Positions 23,347-39,062 of a stretch of 39,062 nt of DNA are shown here, one piece after another (within the stretch, counting starts at the first letter, position 1; the number at the start of each line of letters is the position of its first letter). The DNA lies in IMG/VR virus record IMGVR_UViG_2698536355_000010. One strand, written 5' to 3'. The notes beneath the pieces are model-generated. The model had not been told where the DNA came from and ran no database searches. It saw only the letters and a list, made by a program, of their open reading frames with translations. The translations under genes and the position numbers were made by a program. The stretch is from a virus. Its lineage: Duplodnaviria > Heunggongvirae > Uroviricota > Caudoviricetes.

Positions 23347-25113
23347 ATGAACACCACACTGACACCCGCAGATCTCGATCCCCGTCGGCAGGCCATGCTG
23401 CTGTACTTTCAGGGATACCGCGTAGCCCGCATTGCTGAAATGCTGGGCGAGAAAGTTGCAACCGTTCACAGCTGGAAAAAACGCGACAAGTGGGGTGACT
23501 ATGGGCCGCTGGATCAGATGCAGCTCACCACCGCCGCACGCTACTGCCAGCTCATTATGAAGGAGCACAAAGAAGGGAAAGATTTCAAAGAGATTGACCT
23601 GCTGGCGCGCCAGTCGGAACGCCACGCGCGGATCGGCAAGTTTAACAATGGCGGCAACGAAGCCGACTTAAACCCTAACGTCGCCAACCGCAACAAAGGC
23701 CCGCGCCGTCAGCCGGAAAAGAATGTTTTCACCGATGAGCAGATTGAGAAGCTGGAAGAAATCTTCCATTCCTCCATGTTCAACTACCAGCACCACTGGT
23801 GGGAAGCCGGAAAAACCAACCGCATCCGCAACCTGCTGAAGTCACGCCAGATCGGCGCGACCTTTTACTTTGCCCGTGAAGCCCTGATTGACGCTCTGCT
23901 TACCGGACGTAACCAAATTTTCCTTTCCGCCAGCAAGGCACAGGCCCACGTCTTTAAGCAGTACATCATCGACTTCGCTAAAGAAGTGGAGGTGGAGCTG
24001 AAAGGCGATCCGATGGTGCTTCCTAACGGGGCCACGCTTTACTTCCTCGGCACCAATGCCCGCACGGCCCAGAGTTATCACGGCAACCTGTATCTGGATG
24101 AATATTTCTGGATACCGAAATTCCAGGAGCTGCGCAAAGTGGCTTCCGGTATGGCTATTCACAAAAAATGGCGACAGACCTATTTTTCCACGCCATCCAG
24201 CCTGACACACAGTGCTTATCCGTTCTGGTCCGGTGCGCTGTTCAACCGTGGGCGCAACAAAGCCGATAAGGTGGACATCGACCTGTCCCACAGCAATCTG
24301 GCCCCCGGCCTGCTGTGCGCAGACGGACAATACCGCCAGATAGTCACCGTGGAAGATGCGGTGCGCGGCGGCTGTAACCTGTTCGACCTTGACCAGTTGC
24401 GCATGGAATACAGCCCGGACGAATACCAGAACCTGCTGATGTGTGAGTTCGTGGACGATCTCGCGTCCGTGTTCCCGCTCAGCGAACTGCAGGCGTGCAT
24501 GGTGGACAGTTGGGAAGTCTGGACCGACTTTCATGCACTGGCCCTGCGCCCGTTTGGCTGGCGCGAAGTATGGATCGGTTATGACCCCGCAAAAGGTACT
24601 CAGAACGGCGACAGTGCCGGATGCGTGGTGGTGGCACCGCCAGCCGTACCGGGCGGTAAATTCCGCATTCTTGAGCGTCACCAGTGGCGCGGGATGGACT
24701 TCCGCGCTCAGGCTGACGCCATCAAAAAACTGACCGAACAGTACAACGTGACTTATATCGGTATCGACTCAACCGGCGTTGGTCACGGGGTTTACGAGAA
24801 CGTGAAAGCATTCTTTCCTGCCGTCCGGGAGTTTGTCTACAACCCCAACGTTAAAAACGCCCTGGTGCTCAAGGCCTACGACATTATCAGCCACCGCCGT
24901 CTGGAGTTTGACGCCGGGCACACCGACATTGCGCAATCATTTATGGCAATCCGTCGCGCTACCACCGCCAGCGGCAACCGCCCGACCTATGAAGCCAGCC
25001 GCAGCGAAGAAGCCAGCCACGCCGATCTGGCCTGGGCAACGATGCACGCACTGTTTAACGAACCGCTGCAGGGCGAATCCGCCAATGCCAGCAATATTGT
25101 GGAGATTTTTTGA
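23347..25113 (+). CDS. P: terminase ATPase (large) subunit P
   Basis: 588-aa ORF, P2 gpP-like. Confidence 0.9.
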   Translation: MNTTLTPADLDPRRQAMLLYFQGYRVARIAEMLGEKVATVHSWKKRDKWGDYGPLDQMQLTTAARYCQLIMKEHKEGKDFKEIDLLARQSERHARIGKFNNGGNEADLNPNVANRNKGPRRQPEKNVFTDEQIEKLEEIFHSSMFNYQHHWWEAGKTNRIRNLLKSRQIGATFYFAREALIDALLTGRNQIFLSASKAQAHVFKQYIIDFAKEVEVELKGDPMVLPNGATLYFLGTNARTAQSYHGNLYLDEYFWIPKFQELRKVASGMAIHKKWRQTYFSTPSSLTHSAYPFWSGALFNRGRNKADKVDIDLSHSNLAPGLLCADGQYRQIVTVEDAVRGGCNLFDLDQLRMEYSPDEYQNLLMCEFVDDLASVFPLSELQACMVDSWEVWTDFHALALRPFGWREVWIGYDPAKGTQNGDSAGCVVVAPPAVPGGKFRILERHQWRGMDFRAQADAIKKLTEQYNVTYIGIDSTGVGHGVYENVKAFFPAVREFVYNPNVKNALVLKAYDIISHRRLEFDAGHTDIAQSFMAIRRATTASGNRPTYEASRSEEASHADLAWATMHALFNEPLQGESANASNIVEIF

Positions 25114-29632: not shown

Positions 29633-29866
29633 TTAATGCAGCCAGCTGTCGTCTTCCCACACCTTCTGCATAATTTTCATCACTTGCTTCCTTTCTTCGT
29701 CCAGTTGCAGTCCGGTCAGTTCCACACCGTTAGAGCTACCTTTGCGGATACGAATTACCGTTTTGGGATACAGGGGGCGCAGATTACGGTAAAGCTCGGA
29801 TTCAAGGGCGTCTAGGGTAGACTGGCTAATCTTCTGCTCTTTATCGATCATTATTTCAATGCGCAT
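29633..29866 (-). CDS. DinI-like protein
   Basis: MRIEIMIDKEQKISQSTLDALESELYRNL...WEDDSW resembles DinI (MRIEVTIAK...ALAGEL...TWESADDW); GAGGTGA 6 nt upstream of ATG 29866. Confidence 0.7.
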   Translation of the reverse strand: MRIEIMIDKEQKISQSTLDALESELYRNLRPLYPKTVIRIRKGSSNGVELTGLQLDEERKQVMKIMQKVWEDDSWLH

Positions 29867-29876
29867 AAAAGTCACC

Positions 29877-30065
29877 TCAACTGATGACATCCATTGAGCG
29901 GTTGTATTCGTGGGTTCTGATTTTTGCCATGAGTTCATCTGTTAGTTCAGAAACCCACTGCAAAGCCAGCCCCTTCTCTTCATCACTACACTCACTAGCC
30001 GCTACAAGCTTAAGAAAAAAATCAATGCGCTGGAGCTTCAAAGACTCCAAAAAATAGTCCTGCAT
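29877..30065 (-). CDS. small hypothetical protein, first gene of SOS-box operon
   Basis: 62 aa from ATG 30065 with AGGAGG 4 nt upstream; stop lies inside the dinI-like RBS. Confidence 0.5.
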   Translation of the reverse strand: MQDYFLESLKLQRIDFFLKLVAASECSDEEKGLALQWVSELTDELMAKIRTHEYNRSMDVIS

Positions 30066-30108
30066 CTTTCCTCCTATGACACCACAAGAAATACTGTATA
30101 CATAACCA

Positions 30109-30124
30109 CTGTTTATAATTACAG
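30109..30124 (-). promoter_or_regulatory. LexA (SOS) box
   Basis: aCTGTttataattACAGta, a CTGT-N8-ACAG palindrome with AT-rich spacer, about 45 bp upstream of the small gene start. Confidence 0.6.
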
Positions 30125-30218
30125 TATATAATAATCTTACTGATGTAAAACGTTTTTTTACGTTCATCAGCCTGATATGCCTGGTATTATTAAGAGCACG
30201 GATTGTTAACCCGCGTGA

Positions 30219-34774: not shown

Positions 34775-35284
34775 TCACAGCAAACCGAATGAAGCACCAA
34801 GGCCAGTCATGGTATCAACTGCACTCGCCATCGCAGGATTAGCCTGTAAACGGGCTTGCAATGAAACAGCAGCCAGCGCCATCAGTCGTGTTACAGAGTT
34901 AATGCTGCTGATAGCATCACGACGACCGGCACTAGTTTTTACATCACCAGATACCGCACCTGCTGCAACACGCCCGATCTCTGCAGTTGCGCTCATGACG
35001 TAATGCGGCAGTTTCTCTTTTGCTACCTCATTAATCGGTACACATGGCAGACAATGAATCTGTGCCAGAAAACCATCTACCAACGTTGAATCTTCAGTCA
35101 GATCGGTAAGCAGCCAGATTTCTGGTGCGGTTAATAAATGAGGTTGAGCTGGGTTCAGCTTGTTCCGCAGAATCTGCACATTCATGCCCGCACGTTCTGC
35201 CAGTTGCACCAGATTGTGGCGCAGTGCGAATGCACGACAGGCTTCATCAAAATGTGGATGTTTGGAAACTTGGTAATCAAACAT
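34775..35284 (-). CDS. cII: CII-like lysogeny-establishment transcriptional activator (phage 186 type)
   Basis: 169 aa from ATG 35284 ([19 protein letters not shown]...); matches remembered 186 CII in length and sequence blocks. Confidence 0.8.
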
Positions 35285-35316
35285 GGTCGACACCTCTGAT
35301 GTATCCCAAAATGGAA

Positions 35317-35538
35317 CTAGTTGAATACAACATTGCAATCAGTAAGTGCATCAACGGTAAGAGCAGCAAGGTTGATCATTACCTTTTCTCTTTTCTTGTC
35401 TTTACGAAGACGATGCCGAGGAATGCGACCATCCGCCAACATATCGTTGATTGTGTCGATTGAAAGACCAGTAAGTTCGCTATAACGCTCGATTGTGACG
35501 TGTGGCGTATTCAGAGTTATTGAAATGTTAGGGGTCAT
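35317..35538 (-). CDS. apl: Apl/Cox-like excisionase and lytic-switch repressor
   Basis: 73 aa from ATG 35538, HTH-like ([22 protein letters not shown]), immediately upstream of cII and divergent from cI. Confidence 0.65.
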
Positions 35539-35588
35539 GATGCAACATCTCCTATTGGCTTGTGGTGAGCCTGTAGTAATCGTGACAA

Positions 35589-35604
35589 GTACCCAATTGG
35601 GTAC
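35589..35604. promoter_or_regulatory. perfect 16-bp palindrome in the cI/apl switch region (candidate operator)
   Basis: gtacccaattgggtac in the 95-bp region between the divergent apl and cI starts. Confidence 0.45.
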
Positions 35605-35633
35605 AAAACTGATACTAGGATCGCAAAAGAGAT

Positions 35634-36230
35634 ATGTCAACATCAAAGTACCCAAGTGAGATCAAAATAAATCCCAATAAAGGTGGTAAGGCTGCGATTG
35701 AGCGATTAGTCGAAGCCTATGGCTTTACGACACGACAGGCTTTAGCTGATCACTTGGAAGTATCAAAAAGCACACTAGCGAACAGGTATTTGCGGGATAC
35801 ATTTCCTGCTGACTGGATAATCCAATGTGCTCTTGAAACAGGAACCTCCCTCAAATGGTTAACTACCGGACAAGGCCTTAAGCAAAGCTCGCTGACAGCA
35901 GCTACAGAAGAGCTTGTTAAGTTTCGCCTTGCCGCAGGCAAAATGATTGAAGACGGTTCATATGTCTTCGATTCATCATTTCTTCCTGCAAACCTTTCAT
36001 CACCAATTGTTGTTCAGGATGGACTCGTCACATACATTTGTGATCAAAAATTTTCTGAAGTACTTGATGGAAACTGGTTAATCAATATCGACGGAACCTA
36101 TTCCATTCGAAAAATCACAAGGCTTCCTAAAGGAAGGATTAAAATTACAACAGCAGAGAATAGCTTTGAATGTGCATTTTCTGATATTGAAGTGGTTGCT
36201 TGTATAAGAAGTACAATAGTCTCGAATTAA
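35634..36230 (+). CDS. cI: CI immunity repressor (phage 186 type)
   Basis: 198-aa ORF with N-terminal HTH (TTRQALADHLEVSKSTLANR); divergent from apl. Confidence 0.8.
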   Translation: MSTSKYPSEIKINPNKGGKAAIERLVEAYGFTTRQALADHLEVSKSTLANRYLRDTFPADWIIQCALETGTSLKWLTTGQGLKQSSLTAATEELVKFRLAAGKMIEDGSYVFDSSFLPANLSSPIVVQDGLVTYICDQKFSEVLDGNWLINIDGTYSIRKITRLPKGRIKITTAENSFECAFSDIEVVACIRSTIVSN

Positions 36231-36250
36231 TATAGTAAAAGGATTTTAAA

Positions 36251-37927
36251 ATGAATTCATTTGCCATCGTTATACTCTTATTAGCATTTCTCGCCCCTGT
36301 TCTAGCTGTAATATTATTTAAACAAAGTAAAAAACACAAAGCGGCTATAGATAACCTGACAGCTAACAACATAGCCCTTTCTAACCAACTGATTGAAAAT
36401 CAAGAAAAACTAGCACAGACCGTACGAGAATTATCAGAGCTTGAAGGGCGAGCAGCACCATTGTGGCAATACGAAGAATTGCACAGCGCAGTAATGGATG
36501 CAGAGAATAAGATAAAAAATGCGGACTCAATAGCCAAGCAAAAAATAGATGAAGCCCAAATTAAGGCGGCTAAAACAGTAAACGAAGCAAATTATCAAGC
36601 TCAGATGACAATAAGCAACGCTAATAGCGAAGCTATAGCAATCACCAAAGACGCTCGCGATGCACGCCTGAAAGCCAAAGAACGTCTTGATAATGCTAAT
36701 AATAAAGCAAATGAGCTAATCTCAAATGCTAATGACAATGCAGTAAAAATTATTTCTGATGCAGAAGAAAGAGCAAAGGAGATTGCTGGTTCAGCATATG
36801 AAGCTAAAGAGTTTGCAGAAAAATATGAAGCAGTTGCAAAATCAATGAAAAATAAAATTGAAGGTTATGGTGATGAATGGATCATCCCTAACCGTAGTGT
36901 ACTTGATGAGCTGGCAGAAAATTATGAATTTACAGATGCAGGCAAGGAATTACAAAAAGCCAGAGAGTTAACCAAATCATTAATAAAAACTAATAAAGCT
37001 GCTTCGTGTGATTATGTTGAGCAAAACAGGCGTAATACTGCCATAAACTTTGTTTTGGATGCCTTCAATGGAAGAGTTGACAGTATTTTATCAAAAGTCA
37101 AACACAACAATTTTGGAAAACTTTCCCAAGAAATAAAAGATGCATTTCAACTAGTAAATTACAATGGCTCTGCCTTTAGGTCCGCAAAAATAAGTGACAT
37201 CTATCTTCAGGCAAGACTCAACGAGCTAAAATGGGGTGTAGCAGTTAATGAAATTATGCTCGAAGAAAAAGAAGAGCAAAGAAGGATTAAAGAACAGCTT
37301 CGTGAAGAGGAAAGAGCTCGTAGAGAATATGAAAAAGCGATAAAAGAAGCTGAAAAAGAAGAAAAAGCTATTCAGCAAGCTATAAATAAAGCAACGAAAG
37401 AACTTATGCTTGCAAATGAAGAACAACGCTTAGCTTTAGAGCAAAAAATAGCTGAACTACAGTTAAAATATGAAGAAGCTGAAGCTAAAAATCAACGAGC
37501 TATTTCTATGGCTCAACAAACCAGATCAGGCCACGTCTATATCATTAGTAATATTGGTTCATTTGGCGAAGATGTATATAAAATTGGAATGACACGCCGC
37601 CTTGAACCACTTGATCGTGTTCGTGAACTCGGAGATGCTAGTGTTCCTTTTTCGTTCGATGTTCATGCGATGATTTATAGTGATGATGCACCATCATTAG
37701 AAAACCATCTGCATAAAGTTTTCAACGAAAAGCAGGTCAATAAAATTAACTCACGAAAAGAGTTTTTTAACGTAAATTTAAAAGAAATCAAATCAGTTAT
37801 TGAAGACATGAACATCAACGCCCACTGGACAATGTTTGCAGAGGCGAAAGAATATAGAGAGTCTCTAGCTATTGAGCAGGAGCGCAAAGCAGCCACTTCC
37901 GCCAACGATGAACTACATGTTGCTTAG
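36251..37927 (+). CDS. membrane-anchored coiled-coil protein with C-terminal T5orf172/GIY-YIG-like domain
   Basis: N-terminal TM helix (FAIVILLLAFLAPVLAVILF), roughly 400 aa A/E/K/N-rich coiled coil, C-terminus VYIISNIGSFGEDVYKIGMTRR...PFSFDV...LENHLHKVF...EFF; AT-rich; AGGA before ATG. Confidence 0.75.
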   Translation: MNSFAIVILLLAFLAPVLAVILFKQSKKHKAAIDNLTANNIALSNQLIENQEKLAQTVRELSELEGRAAPLWQYEELHSAVMDAENKIKNADSIAKQKIDEAQIKAAKTVNEANYQAQMTISNANSEAIAITKDARDARLKAKERLDNANNKANELISNANDNAVKIISDAEERAKEIAGSAYEAKEFAEKYEAVAKSMKNKIEGYGDEWIIPNRSVLDELAENYEFTDAGKELQKARELTKSLIKTNKAASCDYVEQNRRNTAINFVLDAFNGRVDSILSKVKHNNFGKLSQEIKDAFQLVNYNGSAFRSAKISDIYLQARLNELKWGVAVNEIMLEEKEEQRRIKEQLREEERARREYEKAIKEAEKEEKAIQQAINKATKELMLANEEQRLALEQKIAELQLKYEEAEAKNQRAISMAQQTRSGHVYIISNIGSFGEDVYKIGMTRRLEPLDRVRELGDASVPFSFDVHAMIYSDDAPSLENHLHKVFNEKQVNKINSRKEFFNVNLKEIKSVIEDMNINAHWTMFAEAKEYRESLAIEQERKAATSANDELHVA

Positions 37928-37985
37928 CAATGTATGTTTCATAGTAATCACACATTGATTACTGGTTACATATACAGTTAAATTT

Positions 37986-38009
37986 AGCCCTCTGATATGA
38001 GGGCTTTTT
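37986..38009 (+). terminator. hairpin terminator abutting the int start
   Basis: agccctc-tgatat-gagggct followed by tttt, ending 1 nt before the int ATG; the stem contains the only SD-like sequence (GAGGG) for int. Confidence 0.5.
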
Positions 38010-39062
38010 ATGGCAGTACGAAAACTAACCACAGGGAAATGGCTTTGCGAATGTTACCCCGCCGGACGAAGTGGGCGTCGTGTGCGTAAACAATTCGCTA
38101 CCAAAGGCGAAGCACTGGCTTTTGAGCGCCACACGATGGAAGAAACCGAAGCAAAGCCCTGGCTGGGTGAATCAGTGGATCGTCGAACACTGAAAGACGT
38201 GGTTGAGCTATGGTTCAAACTACATGGTAAATCTCTGACAGCTGGGCAGCATGTCTATGACAAATTGCTGTTGATGGTTGACGCTCTGGGCAATCCTCTT
38301 GCAACCGATCTCACCTCTAAAATGTTTGCCCACTATCGAGATAAACGCCTGACAGGCGAGATCTACTTCAGCGAGAAATGGAAGAAAGGAGCAAGCCCGG
38401 TCACCATTAACCTGGAGCAAAGCTATCTAAGTAGTGTTTTTAGCGAACTATCCCGTCTGGGCGAATGGTCGTATCCGAACCCACTGGAGAACATGCGAAA
38501 ATTCACCATCGCAGAAAAAGAGATGGCATGGCTTACCCATGAGCAGATTGTTGAATTGCTGGCTGATTGCAAACGTCAGGACCCAATTCTGGCACTGGTA
38601 GTTAAGATATGCTTAAGCACAGGCGCACGCTGGCGTGAAGCCGTAAATCTTACCCGCTCACAGGTGACCAAATACCGAATTACCTTTGTCAGAACGAAGG
38701 GGAAGAAAAACAGAAGCATCCCTATCAGTAAAGAGCTTTACGAAGAGATCATGGCGCTTGATGGGTTCAATTTCTTCACAGACTGCTATTTTCAATTTTT
38801 ATCCGTGATGGAAAAAACGTCTATCGTGCTCCCTCGCGGTCAACTCACACACGTTCTGCGCCATACGTTTGCGGCGCACTTCATGATGTCGGGTGGAAAC
38901 ATTCTGGCCTTACAAAAAATTCTCGGACACCACGATATAAAAATGACTATGCGTTACGCACATCTGGCACCGGATCATCTAGAAACGGCGCTCCGTTTCA
39001 ATCCTCTGGCAACGCTGCCAAGTGGCGACAAAGTGGCGGCAGCGGTTGGCATTACCCCGTAA
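38010..39062 (+). CDS. int: tyrosine integrase
   Basis: 350 aa; LSTGARWREA, HVLRHTFA and MRYAHL blocks match P2-family Int; stop at the window edge. Confidence 0.9.
   Translation: MAVRKLTTGKWLCECYPAGRSGRRVRKQFATKGEALAFERHTMEETEAKPWLGESVDRRTLKDVVELWFKLHGKSLTAGQHVYDKLLLMVDALGNPLATDLTSKMFAHYRDKRLTGEIYFSEKWKKGASPVTINLEQSYLSSVFSELSRLGEWSYPNPLENMRKFTIAEKEMAWLTHEQIVELLADCKRQDPILALVVKICLSTGARWREAVNLTRSQVTKYRITFVRTKGKKNRSIPISKELYEEIMALDGFNFFTDCYFQFLSVMEKTSIVLPRGQLTHVLRHTFAAHFMMSGGNILALQKILGHHDIKMTMRYAHLAPDHLETALRFNPLATLPSGDKVAAAVGITP

Follow-up and report, generated by a model that had tools for sequence, protein, structure and literature searches.

The integrase gene (int) of the 186-like (P2 family) prophage analyzed here raises a question about its own expression. 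Its Shine-Dalgarno (SD) sequence is part of a terminator-like hairpin that ends at the start codon, so on which transcripts does this hairpin act, and how is Int made? In the window, by which we mean the whole stretch of 39,062 nucleotides analyzed, the following genes and reference sites provide the context.

30092-30126, no strand: LexA boxes, with a split tum/dinI operon behind them (ORF list, Pfam, position weight matrix (PWM))
30107-30126, no strand: reference LexA box of the tum/dinI (p95-like) promoter (LexA PWM, Pfam)
34775-35284, minus strand: cII (Pfam CP76; product 70% identical to 186 CII)
35258-35284, no strand: putative CII operator of the window's own pE, ATGTTTG-N13-CAAACAT, at the cII start (motif match)
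between cII and cI: apl-like gene (ORF list)
35634-36230, plus strand: cI repressor, first gene of the upstream (lysogenic) transcript (Pfam Phage_CI_repr and Phage_CI_C)
36251-37927, plus strand: cargo gene with DUF4041 and MUG113/T5orf172 nuclease-like domains (Pfam, ORF list)
38010-39062, plus strand: int, a 350-aa tyrosine integrase (Pfam Int_N and Phage_integrase; 56% identical to 186 Int)

The cargo gene follows cI after 21 nt and is probably co-transcribed with it. In E. coli genomes, the RefSeq annotation places an integrase of equal length (1053 nt) here. The phage record vB_EcoM-813R9 is nearly identical to the window (99.9% identity). The hairpin occupies the last nucleotides before int and is composed of these parts.

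37986-37992, plus strand: 5' arm AGCCCTC, the anti-SD (sequence, folding, terminator scan, covariation)
37993-37998, plus strand: loop TGATAT (sequence)
37999-38005, plus strand: 3' arm GAGGGCT, which holds the int SD GAGGG at 37999-38003 (sequence, folding, covariation)
38006-38009, plus strand: T-tract (U-tract in RNA) TTTT after the stem, touching the int ATG (sequence, terminator scan)
38010-38012, plus strand: int ATG (sequence)

The first-pass annotation had described these arms, the loop and the T-run ahead of int, and the sequence agrees with it, except that the 1-nt gap placed between hairpin and ATG does not exist: the T-run directly abuts the start codon. It had also stated that the only SD-like sequence of int is the 3' arm, and indeed GAGGG, located 6 nt from the ATG, is the sole SD-like purine run within the last 20 nt. 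Folding yielded a stable stem (-13 to -15.5 kcal/mol). The hairpin by itself gave -13.3 kcal/mol and was retained in a 201-nt fold, and its 51-nt context gave -15.5 kcal/mol with a z-score of -3.36, a stability equaled by 1 of 200 shuffled sequences. The hairpin is real and beyond chance. It also has the features of an intrinsic terminator, with a stem of 7 pairs (5 of them G-C), a 6-nt loop and a U-tract of UUUU followed by AUGG (5 T when the closing pair is included). In a terminator scan, it ranked first among terminator-like sites on either strand of positions 35000-39062, and no other convincing plus strand terminator was detected between cI and int. A scan of positions 37700-38300 against Rfam 15 gave nothing at the gathering score; the best match was RyhB (28.5 versus 55 bits), probably due to the stem plus U-run. 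An RNA thermometer was dismissed on judgement, as fourU or ROSE features are missing and the stability of the stem (-13 kcal/mol) seems too high. A riboswitch-like or antiterminator switch was not supported; the 201-nt fold shows no rival pairing for either arm.

To examine the hairpin in related phages, we used a comparison set of 81 loci, consisting of 77 GTDB species genomes chosen as encoding relatives of the window Int, three E. coli genomes and one phage record (ev040), with phage 186 added as a reference record. Of 35 distinct sequences upstream of int, which came from many enterobacterial genera, 33 had an SD-burying hairpin in the corresponding position; two lineages (L024, L043) lacked a convincing one. 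The sequence of the hairpin region is unconserved across the 35 sequences. There are 28 distinct stem sequences among the SD-burying hairpins, and the 3' arm always contains the SD. Native hairpins had a mean stability of -12.1 kcal/mol versus -6.6 kcal/mol for chimeras in which the 5' and 3' halves were exchanged between lineages. Covariation was analyzed in 47 sites aligned with a covariance model that included the promoter (model R2, alignment A4). In this alignment, which is fitted to the structure and contains related sequences, 81.5% of cells pair versus 68.2% after shuffling, double-change cells number 40 versus 15, and the covariation score is 0.437 versus 0.227 (reached by 0 of 500 shuffles), falling to 0.26 or less when the partners are slid. 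An earlier covariance model restricted to the hairpin and short flanks (R1), together with alignment A3, was dropped because of spurious and antisense matches. A clean compensatory change of C-G to U-A is present in an IMG/VR contig with a near-identical int (L138, AGTCCTC/GAGGACT). On this comparative evidence, the hairpin is under selection as an RNA structure.

The U-tract has a narrower distribution. It is present in 16 of the 35 distinct sequences, which are of the Escherichia/Klebsiella/Citrobacter/Enterobacter type and include the window, and is absent from Yersinia, Serratia, Rahnella, Pantoea, Brenneria and phage ev040, where the SD is still paired at the same place. SD sequestration is near-universal and is the common denominator, whereas the T-tract is found in about half of the sequences. 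The core function that has been conserved thus seems to be insulation of translation, and termination would be an addition in the Escherichia/Klebsiella-type lineage, to which the window belongs.

The hairpin could be a feature of either the cargo gene or int. Of 5426 complete E. coli genomes, 1108 are homologous to the window from about 37928-37954 onward, a point right after the cargo stop. In the cI-int interval, strain E2348/69 has a KAP NTPase and a CI-like gene, PCP07083 an OLD-like nuclease and ATCC 8739 a 64-aa ORF, and phage ev040 (L079) carries no cargo there; the hairpin and the promoter-like module described below persist in all of them (the three strains are loci L080-L082). A scan of viral contigs returned only ints at least 99% identical; in 80 such contigs, the sequence upstream fell into 32 distinct contexts, with two alternative types of promoter/hairpin and no new lineages. 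The module is constant while the cargo varies or is absent, and therefore the hairpin belongs to the int cassette and lies at the fixed border of a cI-int cargo hotspot. For P2-related phages of Vibrio, a hotspot between cI and int was described earlier (PMC9122126).

The 58 nt between the cargo stop (37927) and the stem are filled by this promoter-like module, which has the following elements.

37930-37955, no strand: inverted repeat ATGTATG-N12-CACACAT, putative 186-type CII operator (motif match, conserved position in loci)
37955-37960, plus strand: candidate -35 hexamer TTGATT, with a 17-nt spacer to the -10 (comparison with relatives, mostly TTGACC/TTGACA)
37960-37979, no strand: putative LexA (SOS) box TACTGGTTACATATACAGTT, covering -30 to -11 relative to the predicted start (PWM)
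37978-37983, plus strand: candidate -10 hexamer TTAAAT, or TAAATT at 37979-37984 in the other register (relatives)
37990 +/- 2 nt, plus strand: predicted int transcription start site (TSS), inside the hairpin 5' arm, giving a 20-nt leader (promoter and 186 pE geometry)

The int promoter was recognized only by comparison with relatives. In the window, both hexamers are weak (TTGATT/TTAAAT, 8 of 12 positions matched), and a consensus promoter scan of the window did not flag them. Most relatives have the stronger -35 TTGACC or TTGACA, and the int promoter there may consequently be active without CII. An alternative -10 within the LexA box, TACAGT, would leave a spacer of just 12 nt to the -35 and was therefore rejected. 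The order of elements is ATGTWTG-N12/13-CAWACAT, TTGAC(C), CTG-N10-CAG, T(A/T)AAAT, SD hairpin and ATG. This CII-site/promoter/hairpin architecture is shared over the ~90 nt before int in 40 sequences (39 of the 77 genomic loci and the window), with unrelated sequences farther upstream, and the module lies ahead of int in 44 of the 81 comparison loci regardless of the cargo upstream. Across the 35 distinct sequences, the invariant columns are limited to the right CII half-site (nearly invariant), CTG, CAGT and ATG.

The LexA box was scored with a PWM built from 23 E. coli LexA sites (training median, 20.2 bits). Positions 37960-37979 were the top match in the whole window (23.7 bits, above the training median), followed by the two tum promoter boxes (21.7 and 15.8 bits), with the next site at 9.4 bits. 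The presence of a LexA box at the tum/dinI promoter indicates that the window phage uses LexA control. Within 150 nt of int, LexA scores were bimodal: 44 of 81 loci scored 14.6-27.3 bits and the remainder 7.5 bits or less, and a distance of 27-36 nt separated the box from the int ATG in every one of these 44 loci. The candidate box has the CTG-N10-CAG palindrome with an AT-rich center, overlaps the core promoter and is conserved in position, as would be expected of a LexA site. With such a box, int would be under direct LexA (SOS) control via its own promoter.

The second putative regulatory site resembles the CII site of phage 186 pE. In the 186 GenBank record (NC_001317), this site (23435-23462) is ATGTTTG-N13-CAAACAT and overlaps the cII start, as does the motif at the pE of the window, and its half-sites are centered at -58 and -38 (PMC6593788). 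Counted from the predicted transcription start, the putative int operator has its half-sites centered at about -57 and -38, a pE-type spacing. At the int promoter and at the pE of the window alike, 22 nt separate the right half-site from the -10, and the spacing at 186 pE is within ~1 nt of this. The int operator of the window has N12, 19 bp from center to center versus the consensus 20 bp, and one non-consensus C; the int-upstream operators of relatives have N12 or N13 and a consensus right half-site. The CII protein of the window is 70% identical to that of 186. Both the pE and the int-upstream sites occur in many loci, whereas loci with a 186-type cI/int overlap have the pE site only. According to its annotation, 186 itself belongs to the latter type, with cI overlapping int and no int promoter module, and its int was reported to lie within the leftward cI operon (PMC7708051); the missing module and the overlap are consistent with co-transcription of int and cI in 186.

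Where the int transcript begins determines whether its mRNA contains the hairpin. Standard sigma-70 geometry, with the -10 at -12 to -7, places +1 at 37990, and transfer of the experimentally mapped 186 pE geometry (right half-site center at -38) gives the same position, which is base 5 of the seven in the 5' arm. We infer from these predictions that the int promoter starts at ~37990, within the 5' arm, and this is the weakest step of the model. In every locus, the predicted +1 falls 2-12 nt downstream of the first base of the fold that includes the 5' arm, and in four loci (L001, L009, L013, L015) this fold overlaps the -10 hexamer itself. We used the opening energy of positions -15 to +3 relative to the int start as a measure of ribosome-binding site (RBS) accessibility. 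The mean opening cost was 13.8 kcal/mol for read-through RNA versus 4.5 kcal/mol for own-promoter RNA, and the values for the window were 12.6 versus 4.9 kcal/mol. The own-promoter RNA of the window lineage has a leftover CUC(A)/(U)GAG mini-stem. The window-type sequence is most sensitive to the exact TSS: a start 3 nt upstream (G37987) keeps almost the whole stem and raises the opening cost to 12.1 kcal/mol, and positions 37988-37993 are all pyrimidines, i.e., poor starting nucleotides, which counts against the predicted start. A measure based on how often an SD 5-mer, chosen automatically, is unpaired on average was discarded as uninformative, as ATGAG was picked over GAGGG in the main lineage. 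With +1 inside the 5' arm, the hairpin would act on upstream transcripts only and not on int's own mRNA.

These data suggest that the hairpin serves as a read-through insulator, which blocks int expression from the cI/cargo transcript, whereas transcripts from int's own promoter, under CII and LexA control, would begin within the stem and so evade it; we consider this somewhat better than an even bet (probability roughly 0.55). Transcripts from the lysogenic promoters through cI and the cargo gene would carry both arms, allowing the stem to form, and the U-tract would bring about intrinsic termination right at the int ATG. In RNA escaping termination, GAGGG would be locked in the -13 kcal/mol stem and int would not be translated. 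Instead, int would be served by its own promoter in the 58-nt interval, whose 20-nt leader would lack the anti-SD arm and would neither self-terminate nor hide the RBS. Two situations would then yield Int: the establishment of lysogeny, through high CII, and SOS induction, through cleavage of LexA, in which Tum is made as well. The constitutive cI-cargo transcript would not yield it, and int expression would be independent of the cargo residing in the hotspot. A point that we count against this reading is that it does not account for activation by CII with LexA occupying -30 to -11 during infection.

Other explanations of the hairpin may be considered. It is unlikely that it is just a plain intrinsic terminator which ends the cI-cargo operon, with the SD overlap a by-product of tight packing that plays no part in translation, and int expressed from its own promoter. 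This would account for the canonical terminator features, for the absence of another good plus strand terminator downstream of cI and for the conservation of the T-tract in the Escherichia/Klebsiella-type lineage. However, about half of the distinct sequences pair the SD at the same place without a T-tract, some of these T-tract-less loci (L029, L031, L036, L043) have a terminator elsewhere, shortly before the CII site/promoter, and the SD is always in the 3' arm, with which the 5' arm covaries. The perfect 7-bp inverted repeat beside a recombinase gene might also suggest a palindrome bound by a protein at the DNA level (Int, Apl or IHF), or a chance feature, and both are very improbable. The arms differ completely between lineages with pairing kept, as the 28 distinct stems illustrate, and U-G wobbles make several stems (for example, L026, L036 and L072) markedly weaker on the antisense strand; the invariable position of the SD in the 3' arm and the single shuffle in 200 of equal stability argue against chance as well. 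The 186 Int arm-type consensus YAYCGCCAYTY (186 annotation) was not seen when the sequence was read by eye.

The remaining possibility is that the hairpin functions within int's own mRNA, transcribed from a TSS upstream of 37986, as an attenuator, a translational throttle or a 5' stabilizing stem-loop. We regard it as distinctly unlikely, even when taken jointly with the variant that Int is always kept low or that the stem is opened by some further factor. The TSS at 37990 is a prediction, a start at G37987 would keep most of the stem, and purines, which are preferred starting nucleotides, are available at 37986-37987. However, these two positions are just 2-4 nt past either -10 register, compared with the usual ~7 nt, and use of the alternative -10 TACAGT would leave the 12-nt spacer mentioned above. 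In the four loci in which the 5' arm overlaps the -10, the arm is not fully transcribable from the int promoter. The 201-nt fold also contains no alternative (antiterminator) pairing by which such a leader could switch. Finally, transcripts ending before their only gene would be futile, and the same holds for a promoter followed by a terminator within 2 nt ahead of that gene, unless initiation bypasses the stem.

Insulation of int from read-through is thus the reading that we prefer, and it modifies the functions originally proposed for the hairpin in the first-pass annotation. Termination or attenuation of read-through is consistent with the canonical terminator features and SD burial, but can be generalized only in part, as the T-tract is found in just 16 of 35 distinct sequences. 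Gating of int translation fits the buried SD and the covariation, but int's own mRNA would be ungated if the predicted +1 at ~37990 is right. The hairpin had also been tied to read-through from cI and the cargo gene; it is part of the int module and not of the cargo gene, as homology begins after the cargo stop. Moreover, the first-pass annotation had not included the promoter-like module (CII-type operator, -35, LexA box and -10) between the cargo stop and the stem.

In a broader context, we tentatively propose, at slightly less than even odds, that a widespread lineage of 186-like prophages replaced the ancestral cI-int co-transcription by a self-contained, cargo-independent int cassette that is the fixed downstream border of a defence-gene hotspot. 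This cassette would be CII-activated and LexA-repressed and would start inside a terminator/anti-SD hairpin, so that its own transcripts alone are translatable. Among complete E. coli genomes, ~20% carry the lineage, as do many other Enterobacterales. If true, this would explain how highly expressed defence cargo can be swapped between cI and int with integrase control undisturbed, and it would hold for a very common prophage family of E. coli and Klebsiella. In 186-like phages, the direct SOS regulon, so far limited to the Tum antirepressor, would be enlarged by the integrase, and CII of the 186 type would acquire a second target, analogous to lambda pI. In addition, a promoter with an embedded read-through insulator may be a compact natural part for synthetic biology. 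Within the searchable literature, whose coverage is incomplete, we found no LexA box, CII site or hairpin described at an int gene of the P2/186 family. Each component is known in kind, and the interest lies in their combination, which was found nowhere in that literature, and in its prevalence.

Each of these components has a counterpart in a known system. In IS10/Tn10 (and IS50), read-through transcripts reportedly fold and sequester the start signals of transposase, with the 5' pairing partner being absent from own-promoter transcripts. The int hairpin may be similar in that its SD/start region pairs with sequence upstream of the native (here, predicted) TSS, so that only outside transcripts would be silenced; this region is in a conserved stem in 33 of 35 sequences, with covariation. 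In both cases, the protected gene codes for a DNA recombinase whose uncontrolled expression is harmful. In contrast to IS10, outside transcription here originates in the lysogenic operon of the phage itself, with a cargo gene added, the stem in the window lineage doubles as a candidate intrinsic terminator, and the native promoter has putative LexA and CII sites. PMC13181058 cites Davis, Simons & Kleckner 1985 (pmid 2416461) for translation signals sequestered in secondary structure.

Lambda pI is a CII-activated promoter dedicated to int (PMC7708051, introduction). As in lambda, an activator of lysogeny establishment named CII would drive a separate int promoter, uncoupled from its neighbors. 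However, the two CII proteins have unrelated sequences, and the operator of the 186 type is a 7-bp inverted repeat with ~20 bp from center to center. Lambda also has sib retroregulation from the 3' end, which was not seen here, and lambda pI has no LexA box. The int-upstream site resembles that of 186 pE in its half-sites (ATGTWTG/CAWACAT) and in the distance from the right half-site to the -10. In 186, pE is the only known CII target; the int-upstream site differs from pE in having a good -35 in most relatives and in overlapping the LexA box, and its copy in the window has N12.

LexA-repressed promoters are known for the integron integrase intI (PMC3108266) and for 186 p95-tum (PMC7708051). 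As at intI, a CTG-N10-CAG box lies over the core promoter of an integrase gene, and SOS would switch on recombination. Here, by contrast, the gene codes for a tyrosine integrase of a P2/186-family prophage, and the box is joined with a putative CII operator and a hairpin that would block read-through. The gene order cII-apl / cI-(cargo)-int and the protein families are those of canonical P2/186 phages, in which int is co-transcribed with the immunity repressor gene. In 186, the cI stop and the int start overlap, whereas in the window the cI-int interval is a cargo hotspot, and int is separated from the repressor gene, appears to be insulated from it and probably has its own promoter.

In the 80 viral contigs (IMG/VR; L083-L162) whose int is at least 99% identical to that of the window, the gene is found in 32 distinct contexts on its 5' side. 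Int genes that are 99-100% identical are preceded by two differing promoter/hairpin types, TAAAAATGCTCTC...GAGGGCAT versus TTAAATTTAGCCCTC...GAGGGCT (for example, L092 versus L088), which suggests a recombination junction at or very close to the int ATG. In another of these contigs, L138 (~1440-1503), the hairpin reads AGTCCTC/GAGGACT, a clean compensatory change (C-G to U-A) relative to AGCCCTC/GAGGGCT of the window.

The interval between cI and int is a cargo hotspot, and its contents were as follows:

Window, 36251-37927: DUF4041 and MUG113/T5orf172, called 'SNIPE associated domain' in some RefSeq records
E. coli E2348/69: KAP NTPase and a CI-like gene
E. coli PCP07083: OLD-like ATP-dependent nuclease
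E. coli ATCC 8739: a 64-aa ORF
Phage ev040: empty, no cargo

In all three E. coli genomes inspected (L080-L082), rcdA/ybjJ adjoins the int end of the prophage, indicating a common integration site in these chromosomes.

Other observations concern the int module itself. An 8-bp palindrome, AGTAATCA/TGATTACT, spans the right half-site of the putative CII site and the -35 element (37943-37963); it is specific to the window, and most relatives have TTGACC instead at that place. The Brenneria locus L072 carries a second module (CII site, LexA box, -10 and 5' arm; 1261-1325) 1.7 kb 5' of int and ahead of the intervening sequence, and the promoter may have been duplicated at the time of cargo insertion. 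Pantoea, Winslowiella and Mixta loci (L029, L031, L036 and L043) have a separate GC-rich terminator directly 5' of the CII site (~2895-2915; for example, GCCCGCTCAGCGGGCTTTTT), and their SD hairpin is not followed by a T-tract. An Rfam match to RyhB at 37944-38012 of the window scored 28.5 bits, below the gathering score of 55; it was taken as a chance match and ascribed to the stem and U-run.

Elsewhere in the window, a split tum/dinI operon is preceded by two LexA boxes that overlap each other:

29633-30126, minus strand: tum/dinI operon together with its LexA boxes
29877-30065: tum-like gene
29633-29866: dinI-like gene
30092-30111: LexA box, 15.8 bits
30107-30126: LexA box, 21.7 bits

This arrangement of separate tum-like and dinI-like genes resembles that of Fels-2/PSP3, whereas in phage 186 Tum is fused.
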